Source: Truepera sp.
GTDB taxonomy: Bacteria; Deinococcota; Deinococci; Deinococcales; Trueperaceae
Direction: 5' to 3'
Assembly: GCA_965218435.1 (NCBI GenBank)
Contig: CBDCKW010000009.1
Span: 3,008,001-3,072,000, forward strand
DNA length: 64,000 bases
Positions 1 to 64,000 of the stretch are shown here, piece by piece (the stretch's first letter is position 1; each line of letters opens with the position of its first letter). The notes beneath the pieces were generated by a model that searched no databases, had not been told where the DNA came from, and was given only the letters and a program-made list of their open reading frames with translations. A program made the translations under genes and the position numbers.

Positions 1-544
1 AAGTCAGCGGCGTTCTAAGTTCGTGGGAAATCGTCGCTAAAAATTCGCTTTTGACCCGGTTCGCCCGTTCCAGCTCACGGTTCTTACGTTCTAACTCGGC
101 TTGGTAGCGCCGGAGGGCGCTCTGCGTACTGCCCTGAACGCTGACGCCGCGCAGCGCCACGAGTTGGGGCACACTGTTGCCGTTGTCGCCTGACTCGAGG
201 GCGCGCGAGGCAAGTTCGGCGGCGACAGATTTACCGCCGCGCAGTGTCACCGTCACCTCTTGCAACCGCAAACCGGCTGCGCCACCTTGCACGCTTATTT
301 GTGTCTCACCTACTTGTGTTTCACCCGGCTCTGAGTCGTTTAGGGCGTCTATCTGAATAAAGTCAGCAAGCCGCCTACCGCTTAGCTCACCGGCTTCATA
401 ACCCAAGTAGTGCGCGAAAGCCTCGTTGACTCGGGTAATTACACCGGCTTCACAGATCGCGGTAGGCTCTAATGTCAGCGCCAGCAGTTGCAACTCAGAT
501 GACAACGCAGCTGCTGTACTCGGTTTTTTCACGCTGTTTACCAC
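1..544 (-). CDS. PAS-domain sensor histidine kinase, N-terminal part (runs off the window start)
   Basis: Not in the ORF track. Manual translation from GTG 544 gives a PAS-like segment (ITRVNEAFAHYLGYEAGELSGRRLADFI), a coiled coil and the HisKA H-box KSEFLATISHELRTPLT at the window edge. Confidence 0.88.
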   Translation of the reverse strand, partial: MVNSVKKPSTAAALSSELQLLALTLEPTAICEAGVITRVNEAFAHYLGYEAGELSGRRLADFIQIDALNDSEPGETQVGETQISVQGGAAGLRLQEVTVTLRGGKSVAAELASRALESGDNGNSVPQLVALRGVSVQGSTQSALRRYQAELERKNRELERANRVKSEFLATISHELRTPLT

Positions 545-861
545 GGCTCACAGCTTAAGAAGCTCGAGCTAACAGGTGCGCCAAGCTGGTGCGGATGAAC
601 CCGGTCCATGAGCTCAGTATAGGCGACCTCAGCCCCGCTACCTAGGTCAAATGACGTAGACCTTTTGGGACCTTTTGGCCGCTTGGTTTGTCGCCCAAAG
701 CAACGTAGCAAGCGGAAGCTGAACGTCCGTGCGGCAGCGTGAGGCTACGGTCTAATCTGGGCGTGCCGACAGGTAAAATACGGCTGGATAAAACCCTGAG
801 AAGAGCGCCTGTCAGATAACTTTTACCGGGGCGTGCTAGCATAAAATCCCGGAGAGGATGA

Positions 862-899
862 CTAGAAGTTATCTCAAAAGCCACTGAGATAGGCTCTAG
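862..899. repeat. CTAG-bounded inverted repeat, probable collapsed MITE related to 49640-49754
   Basis: ctagaagttatctca-aaagccac-tgagataggctctag; both arms match the ends of the element at 49640-49754. Confidence 0.6.
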
Positions 900-908
900 G
901 GTGACCTA

Positions 909-8474: not shown

Positions 8475-8556
8475 AATGTCATCCTTTCGCCTCGAGCCTA
8501 CAAGCTACTAGGCTCGAGATGCTGAGAACTATGCTTAAAAGCCTTTAACAAGCGTT

Positions 8557-14776: not shown

Positions 14777-15610
14777 TTAACGTTTCAAGTCCGGCTCCGG
14801 GTTCGCCACAAGCGGCGAGTCTGGAGCCGAATAACGAAAAGACCCCGGGGTGCGCCCGGTATCCCGTTTAACGTACCTGCTGAGGTGACTGACAGAGTAG
14901 TAGCCACAAAGCTCGGCGACCTCCTCGAGGCTCAAGTTAGAGTTGCCGATAAGCTCCAAGGCGCGCCTTTGCCGCAGCCCCTGCAGATAAGCCTTCGGGC
15001 TATAACCCCGCAATTTGACGAAGTAAGCTCTCAGGGTTGAGGTCGAAACACCGACTTCGGCGGCTACTTCCGCAACGCTTGGCGACAGGCTGAGCCGCTC
15101 TTCAAACAACCGCTCGGCGCTCTGCACAAGCTGCTCGGCGGCGGTCGGCTCAGGCTCACAGCTTTTACGGCGCAGCGTAAGGTCGAGTTGCCGTAAAAGC
15201 AGCGTGAGCATCTCCGTCCGGTCGAGCGCCCGCCCGCGCCACTCTCGCCGCAACCCGGTAAAGAGCGCGGCTAAGGTGTGCTCCTGATCGTCGCGGTAAA
15301 CCTGCAGCCAAGGGGGTACTGCGTCACACTGCAGATGCATATAAATCTGTTTGTAAGCGGTGAGCGCCAAGTCAAAGTGGGGCGTCTCAGGCGGAATAAC
15401 CAGCAGCATTCCTGGCTGGGTATCGAAGACGTGAGCGTCTACTACGCACCGGATATAACCAGCTTGGTAGTAGATCAGTTCCCAGGCATCGTGCTGGTGA
15501 ACGGGAAAGTTTTGCTGTTGCCCGGCAGTATAGGTACTGACCGTGCTCAGCTGCAGCTCACTCTCTGAAAACGAGGGATAGCCTGGCGATTTGTGCAATT
15601 CACCTGCCAT
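14777..15610 (-). CDS. AraC family regulator (cupin + double HTH)
   Basis: HQHDAWELIYY cupin; VAEVAAEVGVSTSTL and LSLEEVAELCGYYSVSHLSR; divergent from the GH4 gene. Confidence 0.92.
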   Translation of the reverse strand: MAGELHKSPGYPSFSESELQLSTVSTYTAGQQQNFPVHQHDAWELIYYQAGYIRCVVDAHVFDTQPGMLLVIPPETPHFDLALTAYKQIYMHLQCDAVPPWLQVYRDDQEHTLAALFTGLRREWRGRALDRTEMLTLLLRQLDLTLRRKSCEPEPTAAEQLVQSAERLFEERLSLSPSVAEVAAEVGVSTSTLRAYFVKLRGYSPKAYLQGLRQRRALELIGNSNLSLEEVAELCGYYSVSHLSRYVKRDTGRTPGSFRYSAPDSPLVANPEPDLKR

Positions 15611-15786
15611 TTTATGTATTGCCTTTCACGCCTCTTTTCACTAGTATAGACGCAGTTTAACAAAAATTGTTGCGGTGTCTTAACGCACGTCCAGCCTTCT
15701 AAGCGTGTAGCTGGAGGGTTCTCGAGCGTTTAAGGCTCTCGAGAGAACGCAAGCGGCGTTTGCCGGGGGGACACGCGGGGAGGTTT

Positions 15787-17160
15787 ATGGCGAAAATTGC
15801 AATCATCGGAGCGGGTGGCTTCGTCTTTCCGCTCAGACTGATAGGCGACATCCTCAGTTTTAGTGAGCTGCAAGACAGCGAACTGGCGCTTATGGATATT
15901 GACGTAACTACGCTGGCACGTACGACCGGCGCAGCACGGGAACTGGTTGCCCATCACAGCTTAAACACGCGTGTGACTGAGACGACCAACCGCCGGGAAG
16001 CTCTGGACGGGGCGGACTACGTGATCGTGACCTTTCAGGTGGGCGGCCTAAAGGCGTACCGCGCCGACGTCGAGATTCCGCGCCGCTACGGACTCGATCA
16101 GTGCGTCGGCGATACGCTCGGGCCGGGCGGGGTGTTCCGCTTTTTGCGGAGCGTACCTGCGTATTATGAGCTTGCTCAGGACATGCTCGAGCTTTGCCCG
16201 AACGCGCTCCTACTCAACTACGCCAACCCGATGGCCATGAACTGCAGCTATTTGTCCCGGCTCGGCGTTCAAACCGTCGGGCTTTGCCACAGCGTTCAGG
16301 GTACGACCCGGATGCTGGCGGACGCGCTGCAAGTTCCCTACGACGAGGTTGACTACCGCGTCGCCGGGATCAACCATCAAGCCTGGATTTTAGAGTTTAG
16401 ACGCGGCGCAGAAGACCTCTATCCGAGACTCCGGGAAGAGCTGGGGCGGGCGCATCTTAAAGGCGCTTTTACGGGGGAACTCGGGCCCGACTTGGGTGAC
16501 CACAGCGAAGCCCGCAGCGTGTCGTCTTACGAAGGCGGTCAAGAGCGCGTGCGCACGGAAATCATGGCGGCGTTCGGCTATTTTCATACCGAGTCGAGCC
16601 ATCACGCCAGCGAGTACCTGCCCTACTTTCGTAAAGATCAGCAGCTCATCAGCGAGCTGATTCCGGAACGTTGGGACTACTTCGAGGTCTGCTCGAGGCA
16701 TGATGAGGCGGGGCTTAAAGACCTGCTTGAGCGGCTTAAAACAGAGCTGAAACCGTCGCTCGAGTACGGCTCGCAAATTATCCACAGTCTTGAAACCAAC
16801 ACCTCACGCGTTATCTACGGCAACGTCGCTAACAACGGCCTGATTACCAACTTGCCCGAGGGCTGCTGTGTCGAAGTGCCTTGCCTGATTGACGCGGGCG
16901 GCGTTCAACCTACGGCTGTCGGCAAGCTGCCTCCTCAATGTGCGGCGGTCAACCGTACCAACATCAATGTGCAAGAGCTGGCGGTCGAAGCGGCGCTGAC
17001 GGGTAATCTCGAGCACGTCTACCACGCAGTGCAGCTTGATCCTTTAACAGCTTCACTCCTTACCTTAGGTCAGATTCGCGACTTAGTTGACGAGCTGCTG
17101 GGGGCTGAAGCGGCGTGGCTACCGGATTTTGCCAAGCTGCAAAAAGAGGAATTCGCTTGA
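15787..17160 (+). CDS. glycoside hydrolase family 4 (MelA-like alpha-galactosidase), copy 1
   Basis: KIAIIGAGG, GDTLGPGG, LNYANPMA, GLCHS, AGINHQ, TESSHH, GNVAN.GLI.NLP. Confidence 0.9.
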   Translation: MAKIAIIGAGGFVFPLRLIGDILSFSELQDSELALMDIDVTTLARTTGAARELVAHHSLNTRVTETTNRREALDGADYVIVTFQVGGLKAYRADVEIPRRYGLDQCVGDTLGPGGVFRFLRSVPAYYELAQDMLELCPNALLLNYANPMAMNCSYLSRLGVQTVGLCHSVQGTTRMLADALQVPYDEVDYRVAGINHQAWILEFRRGAEDLYPRLREELGRAHLKGAFTGELGPDLGDHSEARSVSSYEGGQERVRTEIMAAFGYFHTESSHHASEYLPYFRKDQQLISELIPERWDYFEVCSRHDEAGLKDLLERLKTELKPSLEYGSQIIHSLETNTSRVIYGNVANNGLITNLPEGCCVEVPCLIDAGGVQPTAVGKLPPQCAAVNRTNINVQELAVEAALTGNLEHVYHAVQLDPLTASLLTLGQIRDLVDELLGAEAAWLPDFAKLQKEEFA

Positions 17161-17283
17161 CACTTTTACCGAACCAGCCTAGAGTTAGGAGCCACACATT
17201 TTTTATCTTGCAGCTTATTTTGCAACGCGGTCAGGTTGTAGCTACTCGTTTTAGCCGCCGGGATTCGGCGAAAGGAGTGTTGT

Positions 17284-19329
17284 ATGAAGCTAATGCGTAG
17301 GTCTTGGTTGCTTTTCGGTGTACTCTCTCTCGGGGTAGGCTTCAGCGCCGCACAAGAAGCCGAACCCGACCCGGCACGCTCGCTGAGCGGCAAGCTGCAA
17401 CTCTCAGACATCGTCGAATACCGCGCGTTTAGTAACTATCAAGAGGCTCCCGAACTTGACGCGATGGTCGAAGCCGGGGACCTCCCGCCCATAGCCGAGC
17501 GACTCCCAAAAGAGCCGCGGGTTATCAAAAAAGCCGAGATGGTTGACGGTTTGGGCGTCTATGGTGGCGTTTGGCGCGACACCTTTGCCGTTCCGACAGT
17601 GAGCTGGAATTGGGGCGTCGCCGGTCAAACTCAAGGCTATTTTGGCATCAACGAAATGGTTCAAGTTCCACTGGTTGACCTTTTTCCGATGTGGATGATG
17701 GCCCAACCGGAACCCGCGCCGCTACTCGCTAAGAGCTGGTCTTGGTCTAAAGACGGTAAAAGCCTCACCATGAAGCTTATCGAAGGCGCTCGGTGGTCGG
17801 ACGGCGTTCCCTTTACCGCCGACGACGTGCTGTTTACGTTTAACGACTATATTTTAGACCCCAATGTTCCGAGCCCCAACGAAGCCGACGCCTGGACGTT
17901 TGGGGGTAAGGTGACGAAGCTCGAGAAGATTGACGATTACACAGTTCGATTTGTTTTCGGCGCGGCGAAACCCTACAGCGCCTTTTACCGGATGGGCTAC
18001 GAACAGTTTTCTATCGTCCCTAAACACGTATTCGCAAAGTTTCATCCCAAATATACCAAAGGCGCAACCTATCAAAAGCTCTTGACCTCCGCCCCACCCC
18101 AAGACCTGCCGCCGGTTACGCTGGGCGCTTTTATCCCGGTGCGTTATCAACCCGGTCAGCAGATGATTTTGGTAAGAAACCCTTACTACTGGCAAGTTGA
18201 CGAAGACGGCAAGCAGCTCCCGTATATCAGCGAGGTCCACTACGCCGAGGCAAGTAGTGGCGAGCAGCGCACCTTTAACCTGATTAACGACACCGGCGAC
18301 CGCGATAACGTCGAGAACCCACAAATCTTTACCCAAATCTTTCAAGCCTCCCAGAAGCCCGACGCTCACTTCAATTTGCGCTTTGAGGGGTTCGGTATCG
18401 GCTACCGGCTCGAGCTCAACTTCGCCGACTTCGGCGCGAAAACGCCTCGAGCCAAGGCCCTGAGAGAGCTGTTTCGCAATCTTAAGTTTCGTGAAGCCCT
18501 CTCCTACGCGGTTGACCGTCAGGGGCTGGCAACAGCAGCCTTCGCCGGTCCATTAACCCAGCCTTGGTACGGGGGATATCCGTCGGCGTCCCCGTATTAC
18601 GATCCGAACTTAGTCAAGACCTTTGAATATAGCCCCGACCAAGCTAAAACGCTGCTCAGCGAGCTAGGGTTTCAAGATACCGATGGGAACGGCCTGCTCA
18701 ACTGGCCCCAGGGAACCCCTACCGCTGGGCAGGACCTGCTCATCGAACTCGTTGCGGCTGCGGATGTGCAAGCTGCGGTCGAAGCGGGACAGGCGCTGGT
18801 TCCACTTTTCCGCAGTGTTGGTATCGATCTGCGGTTCCGGGTTCTGCCTGGACCGACTGTCACAAACTTAGTCAACACCTCCGACTTTGATATGGTCATC
18901 ACGCGTCAAGATGTGCCCACACCGGACGTAAGGCCGGGCTTATACGGACCGGCCAGTGCCGACGAACCCACCTGGCACCAGGCTGGCCCCGAAGGGCGCA
19001 CACTGCTCCCTTTTGAAAAGGAGATGGCGACGCTTATAGACGAGTCTCGCTTCACCACCGACCCGGCTCGCCGTACCGAGATTTTCCACGAGGTTCTTAA
19101 ACTTTCAACTGACAACGTCTACACCATCGGACTCTACGAAGCGCGGCGCGGCTTAGCCGTCAATAAACGCCTTAAAAATATTCCCGACGATTTGCCCACG
19201 TTCCAGTACGAATGGGGGATGGAGAATATGCCGTGGCTTTCGTGGACAGCTGCAGATGAGCAGATCGCCCCGCGCTTTTTGAACCTCATCCCGACACCGA
19301 AAAACTATCAAGCTCGCGCGGGCAACTGA
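17284..19329 (+). CDS. family-5 ABC substrate-binding protein, AgpA-like (alpha-galactoside binding)
   Basis: Signal peptide, YQEAPEL..MVEAGDLPPIAERLPKEP, WSDGVPFTADDV, RNPYYWQVD..G.QLPYI; lies between two GH4 genes. Confidence 0.85.
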   Translation: MKLMRRSWLLFGVLSLGVGFSAAQEAEPDPARSLSGKLQLSDIVEYRAFSNYQEAPELDAMVEAGDLPPIAERLPKEPRVIKKAEMVDGLGVYGGVWRDTFAVPTVSWNWGVAGQTQGYFGINEMVQVPLVDLFPMWMMAQPEPAPLLAKSWSWSKDGKSLTMKLIEGARWSDGVPFTADDVLFTFNDYILDPNVPSPNEADAWTFGGKVTKLEKIDDYTVRFVFGAAKPYSAFYRMGYEQFSIVPKHVFAKFHPKYTKGATYQKLLTSAPPQDLPPVTLGAFIPVRYQPGQQMILVRNPYYWQVDEDGKQLPYISEVHYAEASSGEQRTFNLINDTGDRDNVENPQIFTQIFQASQKPDAHFNLRFEGFGIGYRLELNFADFGAKTPRAKALRELFRNLKFREALSYAVDRQGLATAAFAGPLTQPWYGGYPSASPYYDPNLVKTFEYSPDQAKTLLSELGFQDTDGNGLLNWPQGTPTAGQDLLIELVAAADVQAAVEAGQALVPLFRSVGIDLRFRVLPGPTVTNLVNTSDFDMVITRQDVPTPDVRPGLYGPASADEPTWHQAGPEGRTLLPFEKEMATLIDESRFTTDPARRTEIFHEVLKLSTDNVYTIGLYEARRGLAVNKRLKNIPDDLPTFQYEWGMENMPWLSWTAADEQIAPRFLNLIPTPKNYQARAGN

Positions 19330-19413
19330 GGCGCTGAGGGTGACGGGTATAGGGTGCAGCAGACCGGGTAGAGATTCTGCCCGGTCTCTCCGGAAGGCTC
19401 GAGTGAGTGGGTA

Positions 19414-20409
19414 ATGCTCGGCTTTATCCTTAAAAGGATTGGCTACGCTGTGCCAACTCTCGTTTTAATCAGCTTTTTTTCGTTTCTGATTATCGAACTC
19501 CCACCTGGAGACTATATGACCACGCTGCAAAACACGCTGGTCGCGCAGTCGGGCATGTCTCCAGGGGAGGCGCGCGCGCTGACTAACCGGATGAGGGAAG
19601 AGTACGGCCTCGATAAACCCTTTTTGATACGCTACGGTCAGTGGATCAGTGCTATCGTCACGCGCGGCGACTTCGGCTTTTCTTTCATCTTTCGCCGTCC
19701 GGTGAGCGAGGTGATCTGGCAACGCTTGGGGCTGACCCTGCTCGTCGCCCTTTGCGCCCATGTTCTGTCAGTTGTCAGCGGCGTCCTCATCGGTATCTTT
19801 TCAGCCACCCACCGCAACACCTTTTTTGACCACGCGGCTACCGTACTCGCTTTTTTAGGCTTCTCGGTACCCAACTTTTTCCTAGCACTCGTTATTATGT
19901 ACGTGCTCGCTTTTCACTTTGGTCAGCACGTCGGCGGCTTTTTTAGCCCTGACTACGTGATCGCCCCCTGGAGCTGGGCGCGTCTTGTCGATTTTCTCAA
20001 ACATTTTTGGGTACCTGTTTTGGTCGTCGGACTCGCGGGTACGGCGCGCAACATGCGGGTTATGCGCGGCAACTTACTTGATGTGCTTAACCAGAACTAC
20101 GTGCGCACGGCGCGCGCGAAAGGTCTGTCCAGCAACCGTGTTATCTTTAAGCACGCGGTTCGCAACGCCATTCAGCCCATCGTGATGTACCTTGGGGTGG
20201 CGCTGCCCTTTTTGCTCCAAGGTGAGATCGTAACGAGCGCCGTGCTGAACCTCCCGACGATGGGGCCGGTATTTTTACAGTCGCTGGTCACGCAGGACAT
20301 GTACCTTGCGGGCTCATTTTTGATGTTGCTGGCTGTAGTGCTGGTGATTGGCAACCTGCTGGCAGATATTGCGCTCGTTTGGGTAGATCCGAGAGTAAGT
20401 TATGATTGA
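19414..20409 (+). CDS. ABC transporter permease (OppB/DppB-like)
   Basis: YGLDKP, GDFGFS, YVRTARAKGL, HAVRNA, DPRV. Confidence 0.93.
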   Translation: MLGFILKRIGYAVPTLVLISFFSFLIIELPPGDYMTTLQNTLVAQSGMSPGEARALTNRMREEYGLDKPFLIRYGQWISAIVTRGDFGFSFIFRRPVSEVIWQRLGLTLLVALCAHVLSVVSGVLIGIFSATHRNTFFDHAATVLAFLGFSVPNFFLALVIMYVLAFHFGQHVGGFFSPDYVIAPWSWARLVDFLKHFWVPVLVVGLAGTARNMRVMRGNLLDVLNQNYVRTARAKGLSSNRVIFKHAVRNAIQPIVMYLGVALPFLLQGEIVTSAVLNLPTMGPVFLQSLVTQDMYLAGSFLMLLAVVLVIGNLLADIALVWVDPRVSYD

Positions 20410-21535
20410 CGCCACGAGGATAAAACCGGTTGGGCAGACTGAGCCGAAATTCCAGACCAAAAGCACGTCAACGCTCGCTTTAACCTGGCGACGTTTCCGG
20501 CGAAACACGTTGGCCCAGATAGGCGGGACGTTCGTTGTTCTTCTTTTCTTCATCACCCTTTTTGCTCCCTTCTTTACACCGTATAATCCGACCCAAACAC
20601 AACTAGGTACAGTTTATGTTCCTCCCCAACGCGTTCACTTTTTCGACACCGAAGGGCGGTTTCATCTTCAATCCTTTACTTACGCGCTTGTTCCCGACAT
20701 AGACCCCAATACCTGGGCACGTATTTACCGTGAAGATACCAGCAAGATGTACAGGCTAAACTTTTTTGCCCCTGGTTGGGATTACAAGCTGCTTAACCTT
20801 GTCCCGACAAACCTCCATCTCGTCAGCGTCGAGGAAGGGGGTAGTCTGTTTCTCCTTGGTACCGACAAGATGGGGCGCGACCTCCTCAGCCTGATCATCT
20901 TCGGTGCGCGTATTTCGGTCGGGATCGCAGTTTTTGGCGCACTGGTGAGCGCCTTTTTAGGGTCGGTGATCGGCGCGGCGTCGGGGTATTACGGGGGTAT
21001 CTTCGACAACGTTACCCAGCGAGTCAGTGAACTTCTGCTGAGTTTTCCAACGTTGCCGCTCTTTATGGCGGTGAGCGTAGCGATTCCGGTCGAGTGGCCA
21101 CCGCTCGGTGTGTTTTTCGGCATTATGATGATTTTTGCCCTGTTAGGTTGGCCGACGCTGGCGAGGGAGGTGCGTGGCAAAGTACTGTCTTACCGTGAAG
21201 AAGAGTTTGTCATGGCTGCTCGCGCGGCTGGGGCGACAGGACCTTACATCATCTTCCGCCACATCTTGCCGAACGTGATCAGTCACATTATCGTGATCCT
21301 TACGATCAGTGTACCCGAGCTAATCCTGGCGGAGGGGGCGCTATCGTTTTTGGGCCTTGGCATTCAACCACCGCTAGTGAGCTGGGGCGTCTTGTTACGC
21401 GACGCAACGACGTTAGAGACCCTCGGCCAGAACCCTTGGATCATGCTTCCGGGTGTCGCCATCTTGTTAACCGTCTTAGCTTTTAACTTTCTTGGAGACG
21501 GTTTGCGTGACGCCATCGACGCGACGACCCAATAA
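20402..21535 (+). CDS. ABC transporter permease (OppC/DppC-like)
   Basis: LLGTDKMGRDLLS, EEFVMAARAAGA, RHILPN, LSFLGLG, FNFLGDGLRDA. Confidence 0.93.
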   Translation: MIDATRIKPVGQTEPKFQTKSTSTLALTWRRFRRNTLAQIGGTFVVLLFFITLFAPFFTPYNPTQTQLGTVYVPPQRVHFFDTEGRFHLQSFTYALVPDIDPNTWARIYREDTSKMYRLNFFAPGWDYKLLNLVPTNLHLVSVEEGGSLFLLGTDKMGRDLLSLIIFGARISVGIAVFGALVSAFLGSVIGAASGYYGGIFDNVTQRVSELLLSFPTLPLFMAVSVAIPVEWPPLGVFFGIMMIFALLGWPTLAREVRGKVLSYREEEFVMAARAAGATGPYIIFRHILPNVISHIIVILTISVPELILAEGALSFLGLGIQPPLVSWGVLLRDATTLETLGQNPWIMLPGVAILLTVLAFNFLGDGLRDAIDATTQ

Positions 21536-21581
21536 CAGACAACCCGGCAAAAAGGCAGGGTTGCAGTAAACTAGGAGTCCT

Positions 21582-22997
21582 ATGACTAAAATCACCTTTA
21601 TCGGCGCAGGCAGCACGGTATTTGCCAAAAACCTACTCGGCGACATTCTAAGCTTTCCCGAACTTTCAACTGCAGAGATTGCACTCTTCGATATTGACGC
21701 CGAACGTCTCAAGACGTCGGAAATCGTGGCGCACAAGGTTGCCGACGCACTCGGCGCTAAACCGACTATCACCGCCACGACCGACCGCAATGCTGCGCTA
21801 GACGGCGCAGACTACGCGCTCAATATGATTCAAGTCGGCGGCTACAAACCGAGCACGGTGATTGATTTTGAGATTCCGAAAAAGTACGGGTTACAACAGA
21901 CCATCGGCGATACTTTAGGCATCGGCGGCATCATGCGGGCGCTTAGGACTGTTCCGGTGCTCTTAGAGATGGCCCACGACATGGAGCGGCTTTGCCCCGA
22001 CGTGCTGCATCTGAATTACGTCAACCCGATGGCGATGAACTGTTGGGCGTTAGCCCGAGCCACGCGGATTAAAACCGTTGGACTTTGCCACAGCGTCCAG
22101 GGCACTGCGGGTGAGTTGGCCAAAGACATCGGCGTGCCGGTGGAGGAAATCAACTACCGCGTTGCCGGCATCAACCACGTGGCGTTTTATCTTGAGTTTG
22201 AGCGGGGCGGACAAGATTTATACCCGGAGATTCAGCGTGTGGTAGACGAAGGCCGTGTCCCCGACACGAACCGGGTGCGTTACGAGATGTTTAGACGGTT
22301 GGGCTATTTTGTCACCGAATCTTCAGAGCACTTTTCTGAATATACGCCGTGGTTTATTAAACAGAATCGGCCCGAACTCATTGAAAAGTTTAATATCCCG
22401 ATCGACGAATATTTGCGCCGCTGCGAGTTTCAGCTGCAGAAGTGGGAACAGCTCAGAAATAGGCTCGAGGACCCCACCACCACCTTTAAGGTGCAAGACG
22501 TTCACAGCGAACACACGGACGACTCCCCAACGGACGGCAGCGTCCGTGACGAAGACCGGATGATGGAACAGATGCTCACCATCAAACGCTCGCCCGAGTA
22601 CGGCTCCTTAATTATCCATTCGGTTGAAACAGGACAGCCCAGGGTCGTTTACGGCAACGTCATGAACACCGGCCTGATTGACAACCTACCCGAATGCTGC
22701 GCCGAAGTCCCGTGCGTCGTTGACCAAAACGGCATGCAACCAACCCATATCGGCGCGTTGCCGCCGCAGCTTGCTGCCCTGATGCAAACCAACATCAACG
22801 TGCAGGCTCTGACGGTTGAGGCCATCTTGACCGGCAACAAAGAACATCTCTACCACGCCGCGATGTTTGACCCGCATACGAGCGCCGAGCTGGATTTAGA
22901 GCAGATTCACGACTTGGTGGACGACCTCTTAGAGGCGCACGGCGAGATGATACCTGAAGCGTTTCGCGCTTCAAAACAGCGGGAGTTGGCGCACTAA
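21582..22997 (+). CDS. melA: glycoside hydrolase family 4 alpha-galactosidase, copy 2
   Basis: KITFIGAGSTVF, QTIGDTLGIGGIMRALRT, LNYVNPMAMNCWA, GLCHSVQGT, TESSEHFSEY; close to canonical MelA. Confidence 0.85.
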   Translation: MTKITFIGAGSTVFAKNLLGDILSFPELSTAEIALFDIDAERLKTSEIVAHKVADALGAKPTITATTDRNAALDGADYALNMIQVGGYKPSTVIDFEIPKKYGLQQTIGDTLGIGGIMRALRTVPVLLEMAHDMERLCPDVLHLNYVNPMAMNCWALARATRIKTVGLCHSVQGTAGELAKDIGVPVEEINYRVAGINHVAFYLEFERGGQDLYPEIQRVVDEGRVPDTNRVRYEMFRRLGYFVTESSEHFSEYTPWFIKQNRPELIEKFNIPIDEYLRRCEFQLQKWEQLRNRLEDPTTTFKVQDVHSEHTDDSPTDGSVRDEDRMMEQMLTIKRSPEYGSLIIHSVETGQPRVVYGNVMNTGLIDNLPECCAEVPCVVDQNGMQPTHIGALPPQLAALMQTNINVQALTVEAILTGNKEHLYHAAMFDPHTSAELDLEQIHDLVDDLLEAHGEMIPEAFRASKQRELAH

Positions 22998-23040
22998 CGT
23001 AAATTTTTAGGGTGACAAGCTCCCTCACCCACAGGACAAA

Positions 23041-23130
23041 ATGGTAAAGGTTAAACGCCCGACGAGTTTTGAAGTTGTCCAACTCGCGGGCGTTTCTCGC
23101 ACAACGGTGTCGCCGATACTCAGTAGGACA
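23041..23130 (+). pseudogene. truncated LacI-type HTH remnant
   Basis: MVKVKRPTSFEVVQLAGVSRTTVSPILS matches the LacI N-terminal HTH; similarity then ends and no sugar-binding domain follows. Confidence 0.65.
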
Positions 23131-24149: not shown

Positions 24150-24167
24150 CTCAGTGAGTTAGCCCGG

Positions 24168-25532: not shown

Positions 25533-25536
25533 AGGG

Positions 25537-39830: not shown

Positions 39831-41045
39831 TTAAGCAGGCTCGAGCTCGAGTTCAACCTTGATCCAACCCGGCTCCCGCTCGTCGAACTCCCGGTACGCC
39901 GAAATTGCGTCTTGCATAGGTTCCATCTGGGTCAGGATTTTAACTGGATCAACGACGCCTGAGGCCACCATATCAACCAGTTTGGGAATATATTTGCGGT
40001 GGTTGCAGTTGCCCATTTTCAGCGTCAGGTTTTTGTTCATCGCTTGCCCGATGGGAAACGTCTGCATCGTCGGCGGATAGACCCCGATAATCGAAACGGT
40101 TCCGGCTTTGGCCACGGCTTGCACGGCCCACTCGAGGGCCTGTGAGGGTGCGTCGCCGGGAACCCAGTTGTCACCGTCCGTATTTTGCTCCGGCGCAACC
40201 TGCTCGACTTCGGACTCGAACTGCTGTTCCTCTTGCCCTTCCGGTGCAGCAGGGCCGTGGTCGGCGTGCTGCGCGTCGACGCCTACCGCGTCAATCACCC
40301 GGTCAACCCCGCTGCCGCCGGTCAGCCGCACAATCGTCTCAACCGGGTCTTCTTGATCAAAGTTGATAACCTCAGCGCCCTGTGCTTTGGCCATCTCGAG
40401 GCGGTCTTGATGCCGGTCAACGGCGATGACGCGCCCCGCGCCCAAAAGTTTGGCGCTCAAAATGGCGAACTGGCCGACCGGCCCGCAGCCGAACACCGCG
40501 ACCGTATCCCCGGCTTCGATTTCAGCCATGTCCGCGCCGAAGTAGCCGGTCGGAAAGATGTCCGAGATTAAGATCGCCTGCTCGTCAGCGACGCTATCGG
40601 GCAATTTGACGAGCCCTACGTTAGCGAAAGGCACGCGCACCTTTTCAGCCTGCATCCCGTCGAGGCCGCCCGCCGCTTCTGGCCCGCCGAAAAAGGTCGT
40701 TCCGGCGCGTTTGCCTCCTGGGTTGGCGTTGTCGCACTGTGCGTAGTACCCGGCGCGGCAGTACGAACAGTACCCGCAGCCGACGGTCGAGGGGATGACC
40801 ACGCGGTCACCGATATTTAAGTTCCGCACATCGTCGCCAACCGCTTCAACGACGCCGACCCCTTCGTGACCGACAATCCGGCCCTCTTTCATCCCGGTAA
40901 AGGTGCCGCGCACGAAATGCAGGTCGGTGCCGCAGATGGCGCTCGAGGTCAGCCGCACAACCGCGTCATTGGGGTCTTGGATGGTCGGTTCGGGAACGTC
41001 GTCGAGGCGAATGTCGCCGATACCGTGAAATACAACTGCTTTCAT
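39831..41045 (-). CDS. zinc-dependent alcohol dehydrogenase (FDH-like)
   Basis: AICGTDLH, GHEGVG, CGYCSYC...C, SDIFPTGY, GCGPVG, DAVG. Confidence 0.93.
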   Translation of the reverse strand: MKAVVFHGIGDIRLDDVPEPTIQDPNDAVVRLTSSAICGTDLHFVRGTFTGMKEGRIVGHEGVGVVEAVGDDVRNLNIGDRVVIPSTVGCGYCSYCRAGYYAQCDNANPGGKRAGTTFFGGPEAAGGLDGMQAEKVRVPFANVGLVKLPDSVADEQAILISDIFPTGYFGADMAEIEAGDTVAVFGCGPVGQFAILSAKLLGAGRVIAVDRHQDRLEMAKAQGAEVINFDQEDPVETIVRLTGGSGVDRVIDAVGVDAQHADHGPAAPEGQEEQQFESEVEQVAPEQNTDGDNWVPGDAPSQALEWAVQAVAKAGTVSIIGVYPPTMQTFPIGQAMNKNLTLKMGNCNHRKYIPKLVDMVASGVVDPVKILTQMEPMQDAISAYREFDEREPGWIKVELELEPA

Positions 41046-49819: not shown

Positions 49820-50047
49820 ATGCCCCAACTCCATTTTTACGTCCCTGACGACGTAGCTAAACAGATTCAAGAAAAGGCTAAGGCCAAAAACCTGAGCGTG
49901 TCGAAGTACGTTGCTGAAATGGTGCAGCGTGAAACGCATTCAGGATGGCCTGAAGGTTATTTTGAGCGTGTCGTCGGCAAGTGGCAAGGCGAGCCGCTCG
50001 AGCGGCCCGAAGAGCTACTCACCGAAGAGCAAGACTCTTTTGATTGA
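49820..50047 (+). CDS. antitoxin (ribbon-helix-helix-like, VapB)
   Basis: MPQLHFYVPDDVA...AKAKNLSVSKYVAEMV; immediately upstream of the PIN toxin. Confidence 0.8.
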   Translation: MPQLHFYVPDDVAKQIQEKAKAKNLSVSKYVAEMVQRETHSGWPEGYFERVVGKWQGEPLERPEELLTEEQDSFD

Positions 50048-50071
50048 GCTTTTAGCTGCGCCGCTTACGAG

Positions 50072-50485
50072 ATGACCTATTTGCTCGACGCCAATGCCTG
50101 CGTTCACCTCCTTAACGGCACTTCAGCTTCCCTTTTAGAACGGTTTCGCCGCGAAAGTCCGTCGACTTTACGTATGTCGTCAGTTGTCAAGGCAGAACGG
50201 GCTTTTGGCGCACGCAACTCGAGCCGACCTGCGGAAAACTTACGCCTGATCGCGTCTTTTTGGGAGCCGTTTGAAAGCTTGCCGTTTGACGACCCCTGCG
50301 CAGAGCAGTACGGTCTTATCCGCGCCGAACTCAAACGCCAAGGGCGGTTAATCGGCGCTAACGACATGTTGATTGCGGCTACCGCCCTAGCTCGTGACGT
50401 GACGCTAATCACGCACAACACGCGGGAGTTCGCGCGGGTACCAGGATTAAAGCTCGAGGATTGGGAAACGCCTGCAGGAACGTAA
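50072..50485 (+). CDS. vapC: VapC PIN-domain toxin
   Basis: YLLDAN, VVKAE, LPFD, YGLIRAELKRQGRLIGANDMLIAA, THNTREF.RVPGLKLEDW. Confidence 0.93.
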   Translation: MTYLLDANACVHLLNGTSASLLERFRRESPSTLRMSSVVKAERAFGARNSSRPAENLRLIASFWEPFESLPFDDPCAEQYGLIRAELKRQGRLIGANDMLIAATALARDVTLITHNTREFARVPGLKLEDWETPAGT

Positions 50486-51320: not shown

Positions 51321-51752
51321 ATGAAAACACCCCTGCTATGCACGGTTTTGACATGTATTTTGACCCTTGGAACCCTGAGCTTCGCCCACAGCAGCTTGGT
51401 CTCTTCAAGTCCTAAAGACGACAGCACCGTCAAGGAGCGCCCTACTCAGATCAGCATGACGTTTTCCGAAGAGGTCGAACCGCAATTTTCTACCTTTGTG
51501 GTCTACCCGCTCGGTCAAGAAAAAGATCACGAGGCGCTCGAGGAAAAAGCCGACACCCTCTTGCCTCAAGTCCTGAGTAAGCCTGACGGCAACCAAGTGA
51601 ACGCTAAGCTGACGACCCAAGAGGCGAGCGATACCATCACCTTGGCGCTGCCCAAAGACCTGAAACCCGGCAGTTACGCGGTCATGTGGCGGGCACTCTC
51701 CGTTGATACGCATACCGTCCAAGACCTGATGGTGTTCACCTATCAGCCCTGA
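51321..51752 (+). CDS. copC: copper-binding protein CopC
   Basis: Signal peptide cleavage before His (FA|HSSLVSSSP), FSEEVEP.FS, W..LS.DTH. Confidence 0.9.
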   Translation: MKTPLLCTVLTCILTLGTLSFAHSSLVSSSPKDDSTVKERPTQISMTFSEEVEPQFSTFVVYPLGQEKDHEALEEKADTLLPQVLSKPDGNQVNAKLTTQEASDTITLALPKDLKPGSYAVMWRALSVDTHTVQDLMVFTYQP

Positions 51753-51754
51753 GC

Positions 51755-52699
51755 TTGATAGCACTCGCGCTCGTTAAAGCACTGCTTTTGCTAGGAGCCA
51801 TCTTGCTCGTGGGCAGCGGCGTGACGGCGACGATTGTTGCGCCGGAACTGACTATTACGGGACGCGCCTTACGTCGTCGTATCACCTGGGGAGCCGTCGT
51901 AGGCGCAGGGCTGCTTCTGCTCGGCAGTGCGTTCGACCTCGCGCTGACCCTGCTTAATGCGCTGGGTCGGCTTCCCTCTCGTGACCTAACTACCAGCTAT
52001 CTGGGCAGTACCCGTCACGGTCACGCCATCCTCGTGCGGACGGTGTTGGTCGGCTTGGTTTTACTCTTGACGTTCTGGCTTACCCGCCGTCAAAGCCGCC
52101 CTCAAAACCGTCGGCCCTGGCTTATCGGTATTTACCTTGTCGTAAGCTGTTTGCTCCTGGGTACGTTTAGCTATACGAGTCACGCCGCGGCGATGGGCGG
52201 CACCCCACCGCTATTCGCCGATCTCGCCCATTTTGCCGCCGCAACCGTGTGGGCTGGCCCACTTTTTTATCTCGCGCTCGTGCCGGACTGGGGCGAGCCG
52301 TATCAGACCGGTCTACAAATCGCCTTCAAACGCGTATCGTTTATCGGCCTCCTCAGCGTGCTGACGCTTTTTGCCACGGGCATTTATACGACGCTCGTCC
52401 ATCTGCAAGACCCGGCTCGTTTTGCCACCTCGCCTTACGGTTTCGCGCTTTACGCCAAAGTCGCGCTCGTGCTGATCACCGTAGGCTTGGCGACCGCTAA
52501 CCGTTTCTGGTTGTTACCCGCTTTTTTGCGCCGAGGTGCAGTCCGTTTCAAGAGAGCAGTGCGCCTCGAGAGTGTACTGCTCGTAGCGGTCCTGCTTGCC
52601 ACCGGCGTCCTCACCACCAGCGCCCTGCCTCACGGTTCAGGTGAAGCCGATGCGTGGACTAATTTCGTTCACCTCATTCAGATACTTCAGGGAGACTAA
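51755..52699 (+). CDS. copD: CopD-family copper transport membrane protein
   Basis: SHAAA, DLAHFAAATVWAG, TGIY, SPYG..L..K, ANRF, LES. Confidence 0.88.
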   Translation: MIALALVKALLLLGAILLVGSGVTATIVAPELTITGRALRRRITWGAVVGAGLLLLGSAFDLALTLLNALGRLPSRDLTTSYLGSTRHGHAILVRTVLVGLVLLLTFWLTRRQSRPQNRRPWLIGIYLVVSCLLLGTFSYTSHAAAMGGTPPLFADLAHFAAATVWAGPLFYLALVPDWGEPYQTGLQIAFKRVSFIGLLSVLTLFATGIYTTLVHLQDPARFATSPYGFALYAKVALVLITVGLATANRFWLLPAFLRRGAVRFKRAVRLESVLLVAVLLATGVLTTSALPHGSGEADAWTNFVHLIQILQGD

Positions 52700-53665
52700 A
52701 TGCTTAAGTTTGTTTTACCTACACTAGCTGCAACCCTTTTTGCCGCCGCTTCAGCCCAGCAACCCGTAACGGTTACGTTTAACGGGATGGTCGGTGACGC
52801 GCCGATCGCGTGCGGTCAAGACTATCCCAACATCGGCAGCGAGGGGACAACCATCGCCTTTCAAGACGCCCGGATGTACGTCTCGAACCTCCGCCTCATC
52901 AACGCTGCGGGTCAAGAAGTACCGATTAGCCTCGAGCAAGACGGGCTCTGGCAATATGAGAACGTCGCCCTGCTGGACTTTGAAAACGCCACCGGCGGCT
53001 GTAGCGACGTTGGCACCAAAGCCACCAACAACCAGGTCAAAGGCACCGTACCCGAAGGCAACTACGACGGTTTAGTCTTCGATTTAGGTGTCCCTTTCGA
53101 GCTGAACCACGCCGACGCCACGACCGCACCCTCACCGCTCAACGTGTCGTCACTTTTTTGGAGTTGGCAGTACGGGTATAAGTTTGCCCGTATCGAAATT
53201 CTTAAGGCGCAAGTCGCGGGCTCTAATGCACAGGATGAGACGGTGAACGTCAGTAAAGGGAACCAGGCGAGTGCTAAAGCACTGGGTCACGCAGGTGAAA
53301 TGGATATGGGGGACGGCGCAGCCAACGGCTTTTGGCCGATTCACCTAGGCAGCACCGGTTGCACCTCGCCCGCCCCGGTCGTTAGCCCCACCGCTGAGTG
53401 CGCGCGCCCCAACCTGAGCACGGTACGGCTCGAGTCTTTCAATCCCACAAGCGATACGGTGACCTTAGACGTTGCAAGGTTACTTGAAGGCGTTGACGTC
53501 GGCAAGTCGCTCGAACTGGCCCCTCCCGGCTGCATGTCGGGGTTTGACGACCCCGACTGCCCTACCCTTTTCAAAAACCTCGGCTTAGCCCTCGAAACCG
53601 GGAAAGCCACCGCCTCACAAACGCTCTTCCGCGTGACCGGTGGAGGCGCTCGGACAAGCCGTTAG
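52700..53665 (+). CDS. mbnP: MbnP-family copper-binding protein
   Basis: DARMYVSN, WQ..NVALLDFE, FDLGVPFELNH, WxW motif LFWSWQYGYKF, HLGSTGC, C.RPN, GCMS...DPDC. Confidence 0.9.
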   Translation: MLKFVLPTLAATLFAAASAQQPVTVTFNGMVGDAPIACGQDYPNIGSEGTTIAFQDARMYVSNLRLINAAGQEVPISLEQDGLWQYENVALLDFENATGGCSDVGTKATNNQVKGTVPEGNYDGLVFDLGVPFELNHADATTAPSPLNVSSLFWSWQYGYKFARIEILKAQVAGSNAQDETVNVSKGNQASAKALGHAGEMDMGDGAANGFWPIHLGSTGCTSPAPVVSPTAECARPNLSTVRLESFNPTSDTVTLDVARLLEGVDVGKSLELAPPGCMSGFDDPDCPTLFKNLGLALETGKATASQTLFRVTGGGARTSR

Positions 53666-54811
53666 ATGAAACATCTGCTGTTCATTTTGTTCGTTTTGGG
53701 AGGTGTCCTGGCGCTGCTGGGCACCACCTCCCCACCCGAAGCGTCGCCATCCGGGGCGAGTTATGAGTGGGCGCTGCCGACCGGGTTTCCGACGCCTATT
53801 GTCCCCAAAGACAATCCGATGAGTGCTGAAAAGGTCGCGCTGGGCCGTTACCTTTTTTACGACAAGCGGCTTTCAGGTAACGACACCCAAGCGTGCGCGT
53901 CGTGCCACGAGCAAGCCAAGGCGTTTAGTGACGGCAAAACGGTCGCCGTCGGTTCGACGCAAGAGGCGCACCTGCGTAACGCCCAGAGCTTAACCAACGT
54001 CGCCTATAACCCGACCTTGACCTGGGCGAATCCGGGGCTGACGGGGCTCGAGCAACAGGTGCTCATCCCCCTCTTTGGCGAAGGCCCCATCGAACTTGGG
54101 TTAGCCGGTAAAGAAGAACTCGCCCTCGGCGTGTTCAAACAAGACAAGCGGTATCAAAAGCTCTTTAAGGCCGCGTTCCCGAAAGACGCCGACCCTTTTA
54201 CCGTGAGCAACATCGCCAAGGCGCTCGCCTCGTTTAGCCGCACCATCATCTCGGGCGGGTCGCCGTATGACCGGTTTGTCTACAGCGGGGAGCGTAACGC
54301 GCTCTCCCCTTCGGCGATAAGGGGGATGACGCTGTTTTTTTCGGAACGGACCGAATGCCACCACTGTCACGGCGGCTTTAACTTCAGCGATTCGGCGGTT
54401 CACGAGGGTACCGGGTTTCCTGAAACGCCTTTTCACAACACCGGGCTCTACAATTTGGACGGCCTGGGCGCGTATTCGAAAGGCAACCGGGGGCTCTATG
54501 AGATTACCGGCAAACCCGGCGACATGGGCAAGTTTCGCGCCCCTTCGCTCCGCAACGTAGAGCTGACCGCGCCGTACTTTCACGACGGCAGCGCCCGAAC
54601 ACTTGAGGAGGTCGTCAGTTTTTACGAAGCGGGCGGACGTGTTATCAAGACCGGGCCAAATAGGGGCGACGGTCGGCGTAACCCCTACAAGAGCGGGTTT
54701 GTTCAGGGGTTTAAGCTGACCGACCAAGAGCGAACGGATTTGGTCAACTTTCTGAAAAGCCTGACTGACCGCTCCTTGCTTACAAATTCGGCGCTGAGTA
54801 ATCCGTTTTAG
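53666..54811 (+). CDS. mbnH: MbnH-family di-heme enzyme (MauG/bCcP superfamily)
   Basis: W.LP.GFP.P.VP.DNPMS..KV.LGR.LFYD; heme motifs CASCH and CHHCH; FRAPSLRN...TAPY.HDG; follows mbnP. Confidence 0.9.
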   Translation: MKHLLFILFVLGGVLALLGTTSPPEASPSGASYEWALPTGFPTPIVPKDNPMSAEKVALGRYLFYDKRLSGNDTQACASCHEQAKAFSDGKTVAVGSTQEAHLRNAQSLTNVAYNPTLTWANPGLTGLEQQVLIPLFGEGPIELGLAGKEELALGVFKQDKRYQKLFKAAFPKDADPFTVSNIAKALASFSRTIISGGSPYDRFVYSGERNALSPSAIRGMTLFFSERTECHHCHGGFNFSDSAVHEGTGFPETPFHNTGLYNLDGLGAYSKGNRGLYEITGKPGDMGKFRAPSLRNVELTAPYFHDGSARTLEEVVSFYEAGGRVIKTGPNRGDGRRNPYKSGFVQGFKLTDQERTDLVNFLKSLTDRSLLTNSALSNPF

Positions 54812-62110: not shown

Positions 62111-62662
62111 ATGGACGCCTCGAGAGGCATATTTCAAGCGAGCGTCGAGGACTACCTCGAGGGTGAAAAAGACGCCGCCGTCAAACACGAATACGTTCGC
62201 GGTGAAGTCTTTGCACTCCCCGGAGCCAGCGACGTGCATAACACCATCGCGCTCAACCTCGCACTCGCGCTGACGCCCGCTGCACGACAAAAAGACTGCC
62301 GCGTATACGCCAGCGATATAAAAGTTCGTGTGGGTGAAATCTTTTACTACCCGGATGTCACGTTCGTTTGCGACGACAGTTCCGACCCCTATTACAAAGA
62401 CAACTCGTGTGTGCTGGTCGAAGTCCTGAGCCCGAGCACCCTGCGTACCGACACGAATGAAAAGCGTTACCACTACTTGGAGCTGCCGAGTCTGAAGTTG
62501 TACCTCTTGGTAGACAGCCGCCGCCGGTTCGTGTGGGGCTACTACCGGACAAAAACGGGCTGGGACGAGCGAGTCTTTACCGAGGGGGAGCGTGTTCCGG
62601 TTCCTTGCGCCGACACTGAGCTGAAGGTGGCGGATATCTATGTCCAAACTCCTTATCGCTAA
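62111..62662 (+). CDS. Uma2 (DUF820) family endonuclease-fold protein
   Basis: KHEYVRGEVFA, HN.I..N, YYPDV, VEVLSPST...D..EK...Y..LPSL..YLLV; ATG 62111 lies 6 nt after TACAAT. Confidence 0.92.
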   Translation: MDASRGIFQASVEDYLEGEKDAAVKHEYVRGEVFALPGASDVHNTIALNLALALTPAARQKDCRVYASDIKVRVGEIFYYPDVTFVCDDSSDPYYKDNSCVLVEVLSPSTLRTDTNEKRYHYLELPSLKLYLLVDSRRRFVWGYYRTKTGWDERVFTEGERVPVPCADTELKVADIYVQTPYR

Positions 62663-62673
62663 CCCTTACAGCC

Positions 62674-63792
62674 GTGGACCGTAACGCCGACGCACCGCTC
62701 GAGCGCCGCTTAGAAGAACTCTCGACGCTCAACGCTATCGGCGACATCTTAAACCGTGAGGCGGATTTTTCTATGGCCCTTAACGAGGCGCTTCGAAAAC
62801 TCGTCGAGTTGCTTTCTCTCCGTTCGGGTTGGGTTTTTTTAACACAGGTGGTTCAGGGTGATATGCATCAGGGAACCTTCGCCGTTGCCAGCACGACGGG
62901 CCTCCCACCGGCACTGAGCGAAGCTGCTAACCAGCCGCTCTGTCACGGGTCGTGTGATTGTCAGTGGCTGTTTCGGCAGGGGCAACTCGATACGGGCGTC
63001 AACATCGTCCGCTGTAGCCGTTTGGAGGCTGCGGTAGGGGACAAAGCGGGGCTCGAGCTGCACGCCAGCGTCCCGCTGCTGGGCCGGTCGGGGCCGGTCG
63101 GAATTCTCAACTTAGCCGCCGCAGGCCGGGAAACGTTCGGCGCGGAAACCCTCGCTTTTTTAACAGCGGTTGGGCGGCAGCTCGGCACAGCCTTTGACCG
63201 GGCCTCACTCCTTGCAGCACGGACCGAAGCGGCGCAGCACCTGGCGGTTTTAGAGGAGCGGCAACGCTTCGCCGCCGAGATGCACGACTCGGTCTCGCAG
63301 CTCCTCTTTGCCGCTGAACTGGCGCTCCAAACGGGCGCGGCGGCGCGGGCCGGAGAGCTTGTCACGGACGCACAAAACGAACTGCGGGCGCTCGTCGAAG
63401 TGCTCCGTCCGGCGGAGCTGCCGGGCGGGTTAAAGGCGGCGCTCATCAGGCTTGCGCAGCGTACCGAAGGCGTCATCCGGGTACAGCTCGAGGCTCACCC
63501 ACCCCCCGGTCTCCTGCCCGGGCACGCCCAAACGCTCTACCGCGCCGCGCAAGAAGGCGTCCATAACGCCCTCAAACACGCCCGCGCAACTCGGCTTTGG
63601 CTCCGCTGTGAGACGGTTTCGGGAAGCGTACGGCTGAGCGTCGAAGACGACGGCGTAGGCGTCCCGGACCCGCTAACCGAAGGGTTCGGCCTCCGCAGTT
63701 TGCGAGGCCGCGCCGAAGCTTTAGGTGGCACTTTAACCTTGACGCGTACGGCAAAGGGAACTCGGCTCGAGCTGGCGGTGCCGCTTGACTAA
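62674..63792 (+). CDS. GAF sensor histidine kinase (YhcY/AirS-like, HisKA_3)
   Basis: GAF with LPPALS...LCHGSCDC...NIVRC; H-box ERQRFAAEMHDSVSQ; QEGVHNALKHA, DDGVG, GFGL. Confidence 0.9.
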   Translation: MDRNADAPLERRLEELSTLNAIGDILNREADFSMALNEALRKLVELLSLRSGWVFLTQVVQGDMHQGTFAVASTTGLPPALSEAANQPLCHGSCDCQWLFRQGQLDTGVNIVRCSRLEAAVGDKAGLELHASVPLLGRSGPVGILNLAAAGRETFGAETLAFLTAVGRQLGTAFDRASLLAARTEAAQHLAVLEERQRFAAEMHDSVSQLLFAAELALQTGAAARAGELVTDAQNELRALVEVLRPAELPGGLKAALIRLAQRTEGVIRVQLEAHPPPGLLPGHAQTLYRAAQEGVHNALKHARATRLWLRCETVSGSVRLSVEDDGVGVPDPLTEGFGLRSLRGRAEALGGTLTLTRTAKGTRLELAVPLD

Positions 63793-64000
63793 ACCCGCAC
63801 GCATCTTACTCGTTGACGACCACCCGATTGTCCGCGAAGGGCTCCGGGCGTACCTGTCGCTGCAGCCGGGGCTCGCCGTCGTCGGTGAGGCTGAGAGCGT
63901 CCCGCAAGCTTTAGCTCTGTTAGAACAGACCAACCCTGATTTGGTCCTTTTGGATGTGCAGCTCGAGGGTCAAAGCGGCTTGTCCCTGTTAGAAACGTTG
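63785..64000 (+). CDS. NarL/LuxR-type response regulator, N-terminal part (runs off the window end)
   Basis: Manual translation from TTG 63785: MTKPARILLVDDHPIVREGLRAYL...VVGEAES...PDLVLLDVQL. Confidence 0.9.
   Translation, partial: MTKPARILLVDDHPIVREGLRAYLSLQPGLAVVGEAESVPQALALLEQTNPDLVLLDVQLEGQSGLSLLETL

Follow-up and report, generated by a model that had tools for sequence, protein, structure and literature searches.

CTCGAG sites in the window and in the genome

The window analysed here, a stretch of 64,000 nucleotides from Truepera sp. (assembly GCA_965218435.1, contig CBDCKW010000009.1, positions 3,008,001 to 3,072,000), sits on a 3.94-Mb contig (C9) of a 4.81-Mb Trueperaceae genome (G000), the PyrG of which has its nearest matches in Trueperaceae (71–77%), and the element under study is the palindrome CTCGAG. 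It occurs at 133 dispersed positions from 194 to 63967, with no strand assigned; 116 sites lie in genes, mostly as the Leu-Glu codon pair CTC-GAG, and 17 lie outside genes or at gene edges. An earlier reading of the window from its letters alone, here called the sequence-only reading, had claimed a strong over-representation resembling that of the highly iterated palindromes (HIPs) of cyanobacteria. This was borne out: at a window GC content of 57.6% the observed-to-expected ratio (O/E) was 6.7 with a zero-order model, 5.4 with an order-2 model and 7.9 when the motif was masked from the model. Its estimate of about 29 sites in the first 10 kb is the exact count, this being the densest full 10-kb bin (the remaining five full bins hold 13–21 each), and all 22 of its coordinates that were checked are right. 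Its view that many sites are intergenic stood in part: all 15 sites it cited lie outside the gene calls, but the large majority of window sites are coding. For the 58 genes wholly inside the window, 83, 5 and 26 sites were observed in the three frames as compared to 24.2, 1.0 and 4.0 in a synonymous-codon shuffle, and the coding total of 114 exceeded the maximum of 47 among 500 such shuffles.

Several local arrangements of sites were found. Between two minus-strand genes, two CTCGAG form the outer ends of a 10-bp inverted repeat at 8491–8518, whose arms are perfect as had been described; it is single copy, no repeated element behind it was found in the genome, and with a folding z of -2.1 it is likely a hairpin that co-opted two CTCGAG sites. 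An intergenic pair 17 bp apart (15721–15743) lies upstream of an alpha-galactosidase gene, and two abutting sites (39840–39851) lie inside the 3' end of a minus-strand dehydrogenase gene (39831–41045). The longest CTCGAG-free stretch of the window, about 3.06 kb at 19404–22463, covers ABC permeases and a second alpha-galactosidase. The region 14777–22997 as a whole comprises a peptide-type ABC transporter between the two alpha-galactosidase genes and adjoins a divergent AraC-like regulator.

Genome-wide, CTCGAG is the commonest hexamer with 9,883 sites (order-2 O/E of 5.22), i.e., approximately 2,060 per Mb or about one every 470 bases, at 86–131 per 50 kb along the chromosome. The chromosomal O/E was 8.25 with the word masked from the model, whereas the remaining 63 palindromic hexamers range from 0.02 to 1.13 and all 18 one-mismatch neighbours of CTCGAG from 0.59 to 1.14. 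The core comprises six bases, with a symmetric flank preference for G before and C after the word (25% of sites). At the lower end, GGCGCC (52 sites), GGGCCC (49), TTTAAA (58) and AGGCCT (93) are almost absent from this genome, with O/E of 0.02–0.07.

Markov-model ratios and the reading-frame distribution had been put forward as checks on the over-representation, and both showed the excess in all three frames as well as between genes. Using 4,646 gene calls made in this analysis, 6,591, 522 and 1,338 coding sites were counted per frame, which is 3.2-, 6.4- and 5.2-fold over 10 synonymous shuffles, while intergenic sites were 8.1-fold over the masked model. The synonymous-codon shuffle was used in place of the di-codon-preserving shuffle proposed earlier, since the latter keeps in-frame sites by construction. 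The possibility that the excess is an artefact of codon-pair use or of context-dependent mutation, with no function, draws on the 78% share of Leu-Glu pairs among coding sites and on a 1.25-fold excess of Leu-Glu over expectation. However, the larger excess out of frame and intergenically largely refutes it, and it predicts neither the mutual repulsion of sites nor the enrichment on plasmids described below; we consider it very improbable. The CTCGAG excess is not a codon effect.

Spacing, conservation and distribution among relatives

Neighbouring sites repel each other over distances of up to about 400 bp. The share of Leu-Glu pairs written CTC-GAG rose from 0.39 when the nearest other site was closer than 25 bp to 0.51 (25–100 bp), 0.54 (100–200 bp), 0.60 (200–400 bp) and 0.61 (beyond 400 bp), whereas three permutations stayed level at about 0.54, and a comparable rise beyond 100 bp was absent from all 10 control dicodons. 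Moreover, gaps shorter than 100 bp numbered 1,384 as compared to 1,482 ± 18 in within-gene and 1,590 ± 22 in genome-wide permutations. The sites are also conserved against a congener (G005): among 217 orthologues, 216 of the 272 CTCGAG at conserved Leu-Glu pairs were kept at a four-fold-site identity of 0.55, and the conservation coefficient phi was 0.60 as compared to 0.13–0.40 for 15 control dipeptides, in a test covering this one genome pair and 400 kb of sampled sequence. Compensatory gain and loss between the two genomes showed a weak trend only (retention 0.76–0.85, gain 0.17–0.26).

On a larger scale the placement is even. The longest CTCGAG-free gap on the chromosome is 5.7 kb, and the eight longest gaps contain two transposase-like genes, one inferred 23S rRNA gene and five ordinary genes. 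There is no origin cluster, as no 500-bp stretch holds more than 7 sites and the density is flat with distance from the skew-inferred origin, and no enrichment at gene starts was found in G000. Flanks and extensions of the word showed no replication-strand polarity (4,335 vs. 4,295), whereas the positive control GGGGAGA, which we take to be KOPS-like (FtsK-orienting polar sequence), is skewed 311:109 to the leading strand of C9. Judging from the extremes of the skew, at 3.38 and 1.46 Mb, C9 may be a whole chromosome and another contig, C5, a second replicon.

These features bear on the possibility that CTCGAG binds a putative nucleoid or competence protein, which would either organise the chromosome or prefer self-DNA and spread the word by biased uptake. 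Uniform density and short-range repulsion would fit such a protein, as would the symmetric flank, 50% of the intergenic sites having G at position -1. Pairs spaced by 21 bp, which may be over-represented (53 vs. 19–33 at neighbouring multiples of 3), would point the same way. Close pairs extending into hairpins account for 11 of 66 intergenic and 36 of 450 coding pairs. However, close intergenic pairs are about as frequent as expected by chance (66 vs. 67.7), and a simple periodogram, which is not the method of Xu et al. (2018), gave no clear periodicity at 10–90 kb (values of 9.2 at 72 kb and of 9.0 at 11 kb, where the maximum expected is 7.6; the highest value was 11.8 at 3.4 kb). No candidate reader was found, and none was systematically searched for. 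Known DNA uptake sequences are 9–10 bp long, non-palindromic and enriched as terminator repeats; CTCGAG, a 6-bp palindrome whose close intergenic pairs do not exceed chance, fails this comparison. HIP1 is reported to raise transformation in cyanobacteria, which would speak for a role in uptake. Altogether, we regard a dedicated nucleoid or uptake protein as rather unlikely.

A comparison with related genomes, which the sequence-only reading had recommended, showed that the excess is lineage-wide in most of the order. The word was counted in 131 genomes (G053 is left out of the counts made here), and the ratio of CTCGAG to CTGGAG exceeded 2 in 70 of 78 Trueperaceae (G000 included), 12 of 12 genomes of family f5, 8 of 13 of f3, 4 of 13 of f4 and 0 of 14 of f2; the names behind f2 (Deinococcus-like) and g23 (Thermus-like) are inferred, partly from TaqI genes and AddA. 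In fetched stretches the masked O/E was 38 for f5, 8.2 for G102, 7.9 for G005, 6.9 for G030, 4.8 for g23, 4.1 for f3 genomes lacking MutL, 2.0 for Trueperaceae lacking MutL, 1.4 for G007 and 0.1 for f2 (80 kb from four genomes). Thus, Trueperaceae, Meiothermus, Marinithermus, Thermus-like genomes and one family (f5) of metagenome-assembled genomes (MAGs) share the excess, and Deinococcus-like ones do not. In 73 of 78 Trueperaceae at least 7 sites per 10 kb were present although the sampled GC content varies from about 40 to 74%. The f5 genomes (G028, G036, G099, G103, G111, G127 and others) carry 21,883–35,442 sites each, i.e., 43–65 per 10 kb or one every 170 bp approximately, and the reversed word GAGCTC is nearly absent from them (3–568 sites). 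The ratios CTCGAG/GAGCTC and CTCGAG/CTGGAG were dropped as gauges of enrichment: they understate the Thermus-like genomes because TCGA is avoided there, and the masked model reverses that reading. In the Thermus-like g23, where AddA is present, 67% of all TCGA stand in CTCGAG context. No report of a CTCGAG excess in Deinococcota was found in the literature within reach, which did not extend to subscription journals and bioRxiv supplements.

Methylation and mismatch repair as possible explanations

The sequence-only reading had suggested an orphan methyltransferase behind the word, which is unsupported in this genome. The search it recommended for an XhoI/PaeR7I-type methyltransferase found none in G000, and none of the TaqI type, although such searches can miss distant members. 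Among the 131 genomes, the TaqI type was found in 9 and the PaeR7I type in 10, the latter search having missed one 27% relative in G099. No G000 enzyme was recognised as a CTCGAG methyltransferase; two 5-methylcytosine (m5C) enzymes and one D12 enzyme without assigned specificity are present. Likewise, no XhoI nuclease was found in G000, and XhoI-family nucleases were found in 4 of 131 genomes, being split in one (G001, L161:8596-9284) and standing in the other three (L382-L384; G038, G105 and G026) opposite N4/N6-type (SPPY-motif) methyltransferases, not PaeR7I-type ones.

CTCGAG might nevertheless be a methylation mark, written by a solitary methyltransferase in the manner of Dam or of DmtC-dependent HIP1 and read in transformation, replication or repair. 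According to the supplementary data (S3) of Blow et al. (2016; PMC4752239), active solitary N6-methyladenine enzymes for CTCGAG, verified by SMRT (single-molecule real-time) sequencing, exist in three cultured relatives within the same order, namely M. ruber (M.Mru1279II), M. chliarophilus (M.Mch9957IV) and Marinithermus hydrothermalis (M.Mhy14884I), and the Marinithermus type II enzyme is assigned there to CTCGAG and not to TCGA. Of the candidate proteins, that of Marinithermus is of the TaqI type and that of M. ruber of the PaeR7I type, the link to their locus tags being inferred; this suggests that such enzymes were recruited repeatedly. G030 has an M.TaqI orthologue (L111:814-2040) that is named as a Marinithermus protein, and no TaqI nuclease gene was seen beside it.

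In G000 the mark would have to be written either by the conserved orphan of this genome, methyltransferase A (C9:3672240-3673922), after a switch of its specificity, or by an unrecognised enzyme. A has a syntenic position close to dnaG and a glgA-like gene. It was found in 42 of the 77 family members, and its copies group in a supported clade; in G085 the ancestral A is interrupted by a cassette of about 8 kb with integrase and transposase (L159:6412-16528), which carries a solitary PaeR7I-type methyltransferase. Its specificity was addressed via outside homologues at 80 metagenome loci, 67 of which were tested for neighbours (left out were one Truepera-like locus and 12 others, most of them short). 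Around the 23 closest homologues CAGCTG was found 6 times where 64 were expected, a depletion far stronger than that of any other hexamer, as compared to 94 against 135 for CTCGAG; at 31 more distant loci CAGCTG was found 46 times against 73 expected. A nuclease-like gene follows the homologue in 54 of the 67 loci (L290-L369, e.g., L291:3173-3862); its family, of about 230 amino acids and without Pfam hit, is likely an unnamed CAGCTG restriction family, judging from these neighbourhoods. It is intact in G005 (L380 = G005:C8:3369685-3373353), present as a remnant in G012 and was not found in G000.

Thus, A is probably a CAGCTG enzyme. As the CTCGAG writer it had been our working reading, which the CAGCTG depletion demoted to a rival; the result corrects a tempting, probably wrong assignment. 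The Trueperaceae A shares 117 conserved columns of the outside family and differs at 10, and G005 has the nuclease (65% identical) beside its A (76% identical to that of G000) at a CTCGAG O/E of 5.5. On the other hand, G005 does not avoid CAGCTG (0.92), the Trueperaceae A forms a clade of its own, and the G085 copy was broken by a PaeR7I-type cassette, all of which count against the CAGCTG assignment. Plasmid homologues of A were rejected as guides, being only 35–40% identical and without a named nuclease, and sequence searches of the PDB placed neither A nor AddB.

Further observations speak against a methyl mark. Genomes lacking MutL are not more enriched with A than without it (2.5 vs. 3.4), G000 has no origin cluster, and no shared methyltransferase was found in f5 among five Pfam families in five genomes each; the L114 enzyme, considered for this role, is present in 2 of 131 genomes only, and the MT-A70 control matched nowhere, which makes that particular scan uninformative. 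Moreover, the methylome of M. silvanus comprises five motifs, none of them CTCGAG (SMRT being weak for m5C), whereas CTCGAG on 40 kb of a plasmid of this species has an O/E of 4.2. Methylation is therefore not needed for the excess. The CTCGAG methyltransferases of some relatives, from three unrelated families, may be secondary protection against XhoI-type nucleases and not the cause of the abundance. Overall, a methylation mark appears doubtful to us, including the form in which A switched specificity.

Repair bias had been named as another possible origin. For a bias of the Vsr type, which would selectively deplete the C-to-T neighbour, no such signature was seen: the intergenic one-step neighbours, at 0.77–1.14, lie inside the 5–95% range of all hexamers (0.71–1.35), without position-specific depletion. 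A signal linked to MutS/MutL, i.e., a strand or nicking cue, or else the outcome of a repair ratchet as conceived by Elhai, which decays after loss of mismatch repair, was also considered. MutL was found in 32 of 78 Trueperaceae, and the median CTCGAG/CTGGAG ratio was 8.6 with MutL (n = 32, 26 of them above 6) as compared to 3.3 without (n = 46, 2 above 6), a contrast that is partly compositional since stretches lacking MutL have about 70% GC, and that comes from kin which are not independent. The ratio is better accounted for by MutL than by methyltransferase A, all sampled stretches with a masked O/E above 4.5 come from genomes that have both MutL and AddA, and even spacing would be favoured by a repair cue as well. 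However, all 14 f2 genomes possess MutL and yet deplete the word, f3 genomes lacking MutL keep an O/E of 4.1, and the density barely differs, with 16.8 sites per 10 kb with MutL and 13.9 without. A mismatch-repair signal is therefore unlikely, if perhaps a shade less so than a methyl mark.

A Chi-like reading and comparison with known systems

We tentatively favour, while holding it to be well short of probable, that CTCGAG is a methylation-independent, palindromic, Chi-like stop signal for a Thermus-type AddAB, with its spacing kept by a density-dependent force. Following this, AddAB entering at a DNA end would degrade until CTCGAG is met on either strand and would from there on leave RecA a 3' tail. 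This would preferentially preserve molecules that carry a site close to the break; new sites would spread most in places without a neighbouring one, and a high number of sites would benefit plasmids and phages. An end-scanning enzyme that needs one site within a few hundred bases would fit the density dependence, the conservation and the enrichment on mobile DNA without any methylation. A more specific form is somewhat less probable, namely that CTCGAG is the Chi of the Thermus-type AddAB itself, the first palindromic one, which would be read both ways without methylation and spaced at a few hundred bases by a drive from break repair.

It is AddAB whose absence coincides with the strongest natural contrast. 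Of 130 genomes, 112 have AddA; those without it are 13 of the 14 f2 genomes, G007 and four fragmented MAGs, one of which has AddB. G000 has an intact AddAB operon, with UvrD and PD-(D/E)XK domains in AddA and four invariant cysteines in AddB, as in iron-sulfur AddB; the predicted structure of the latter (predicted local distance difference test, pLDDT, 86) matches AddB of B. subtilis best, at an E value of 5e-25. Mobile DNA is strongly enriched: the masked O/E is 16.9 and 14.6 on the units of C6 and C8, respectively, and 6.0 in the Meiothermus phage MMP17, whereas multicopy DNA of G000 has 1.4 sites per 10 kb as compared to 21.6. C6 and C8 are plasmid-like contigs that were assembled as 1.6–2 tandem copies of 13.0-kb and 10.5-kb units. 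In Thermus, deletion of addAB raised plasmid transformation about 100-fold (PMC9751324), and the available text of the Thermus AddAB papers, this one among them, names no Chi sequence.

Several points weigh against this assignment. AddB of G000 is about 380 residues shorter than that of B. subtilis, with 13% identity. The co-loss of AddAB and CTCGAG amounts to about two events (f2 and G007) among kin that are not independent. Three of the four g20 MAGs (85–91% complete) have no AddA and AddB matches and keep an O/E of 2.6–3.0, the AddA-positive congener being lower (1.9). Weak enrichment is found in several Trueperaceae with AddA but without MutL (G020, G047, G079 and G049, O/E of 1.1–1.4 in one 20-kb stretch each), and AddA-positive G078 has 2.9 sites per 10 kb only. 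The Thermus phage IN93 is not enriched (4 sites vs. 3.1 expected, O/E of 1.3). The f5 density of 60 per 10 kb looks beyond any need. Known Chi sites are described as neither palindromic nor methylated, and deletion of addAB in Synechococcus 7002 is reported to have left the HIP1 effect in place (both 10.1101/2024.09.10.611283). The word is a palindrome without replication-polarised extension, and since it failed this polarity test for a classical Chi it was not classed as one. What limits our confidence in a Chi-like role are the g20 exceptions, the AddA-positive genomes with weak enrichment, the fact that known Chi sites are not palindromic and the negative outcome for HIP1 when addAB was deleted.

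Independent of its reader, CTCGAG behaves as a HIP in abundance, frame distribution and conservation, as the sequence-only reading had supposed, and it is not HIP1. HIP1 (GCGATCGC) and the alternate HIPs are likewise single dominant palindromes at around 2,000 per Mb, genic and intergenic, conserved in position and lineage-wide (Elhai, 2015, PMC4390886; Xu et al., 2018, PMC5861425; Rodriguez-Cruz et al., 2026, PMC13756078), the density of the class being given as about 1,000–2,000 per Mb (Elhai, 2015), in an article whose accessible text does not mention CTCGAG, Thermus or Deinococcus. However, the fold excess of CTCGAG is about 8 (38 in f5) as compared to 15–300 for HIPs, and it shows short-range repulsion, no clear long-range periodicity and no recognised cognate methyltransferase in G000. 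The host belongs to Trueperaceae and not to cyanobacteria, and CGATCG is depleted in G000 (O/E of 0.15). The Chi sequences of AddAB and RecBCD (AGCGG in B. subtilis; PMC4824097; PDB 3u4q, 4cej) resemble CTCGAG in being short words over-represented in core DNA. CTCGAG is also rare in multicopy DNA, and the lineage has an AddAB whose modelled AddB matches that of B. subtilis; it differs from Chi in its palindromic sequence, its lack of strand polarity and its methylation in some relatives. Solitary CTCGAG methyltransferases recognise the same sequence, but no orthologue of the M. ruber or Marinithermus enzyme was detected in G000. For Nocardia, methylation and an origin cluster of CTCGAG are described (Blow et al., 2016, PMC4752239), not a Deinococcota excess, and G000 has no such cluster. 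Finally, XhoI/PaeR7I restriction-modification shares the target, but restriction selects against sites, whereas in G000 CTCGAG is the sole strongly favoured palindromic hexamer.

The purpose of cyanobacterial HIP1 has been open for 30 years, and CTCGAG in Deinococcota is an independent case. It offers natural contrasts, as Deinococcus-like genomes deplete the word, f5 has multiplied it and relatives differ in AddAB, MutL and methylation, as well as a genetically tractable host with existing addAB mutants in T. thermophilus. If CTCGAG were the AddAB signal, the missing Chi of Thermus would be supplied, the rule that Chi is non-palindromic would be widened and a simple way to raise transformation would be at hand; under the palindromic-Chi reading, a highly iterated palindrome would be the footprint left by an enzyme that resects DNA ends.

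Apart from CTCGAG, the window contains a gene for a fatty-acid peroxygenase of the CYP152 family (36775–38013), a VapC gene with a short gene upstream (49820–50485) and a CopC-CopD-MbnP-MbnH copper cluster, which forms one gene run at 51321–54811.

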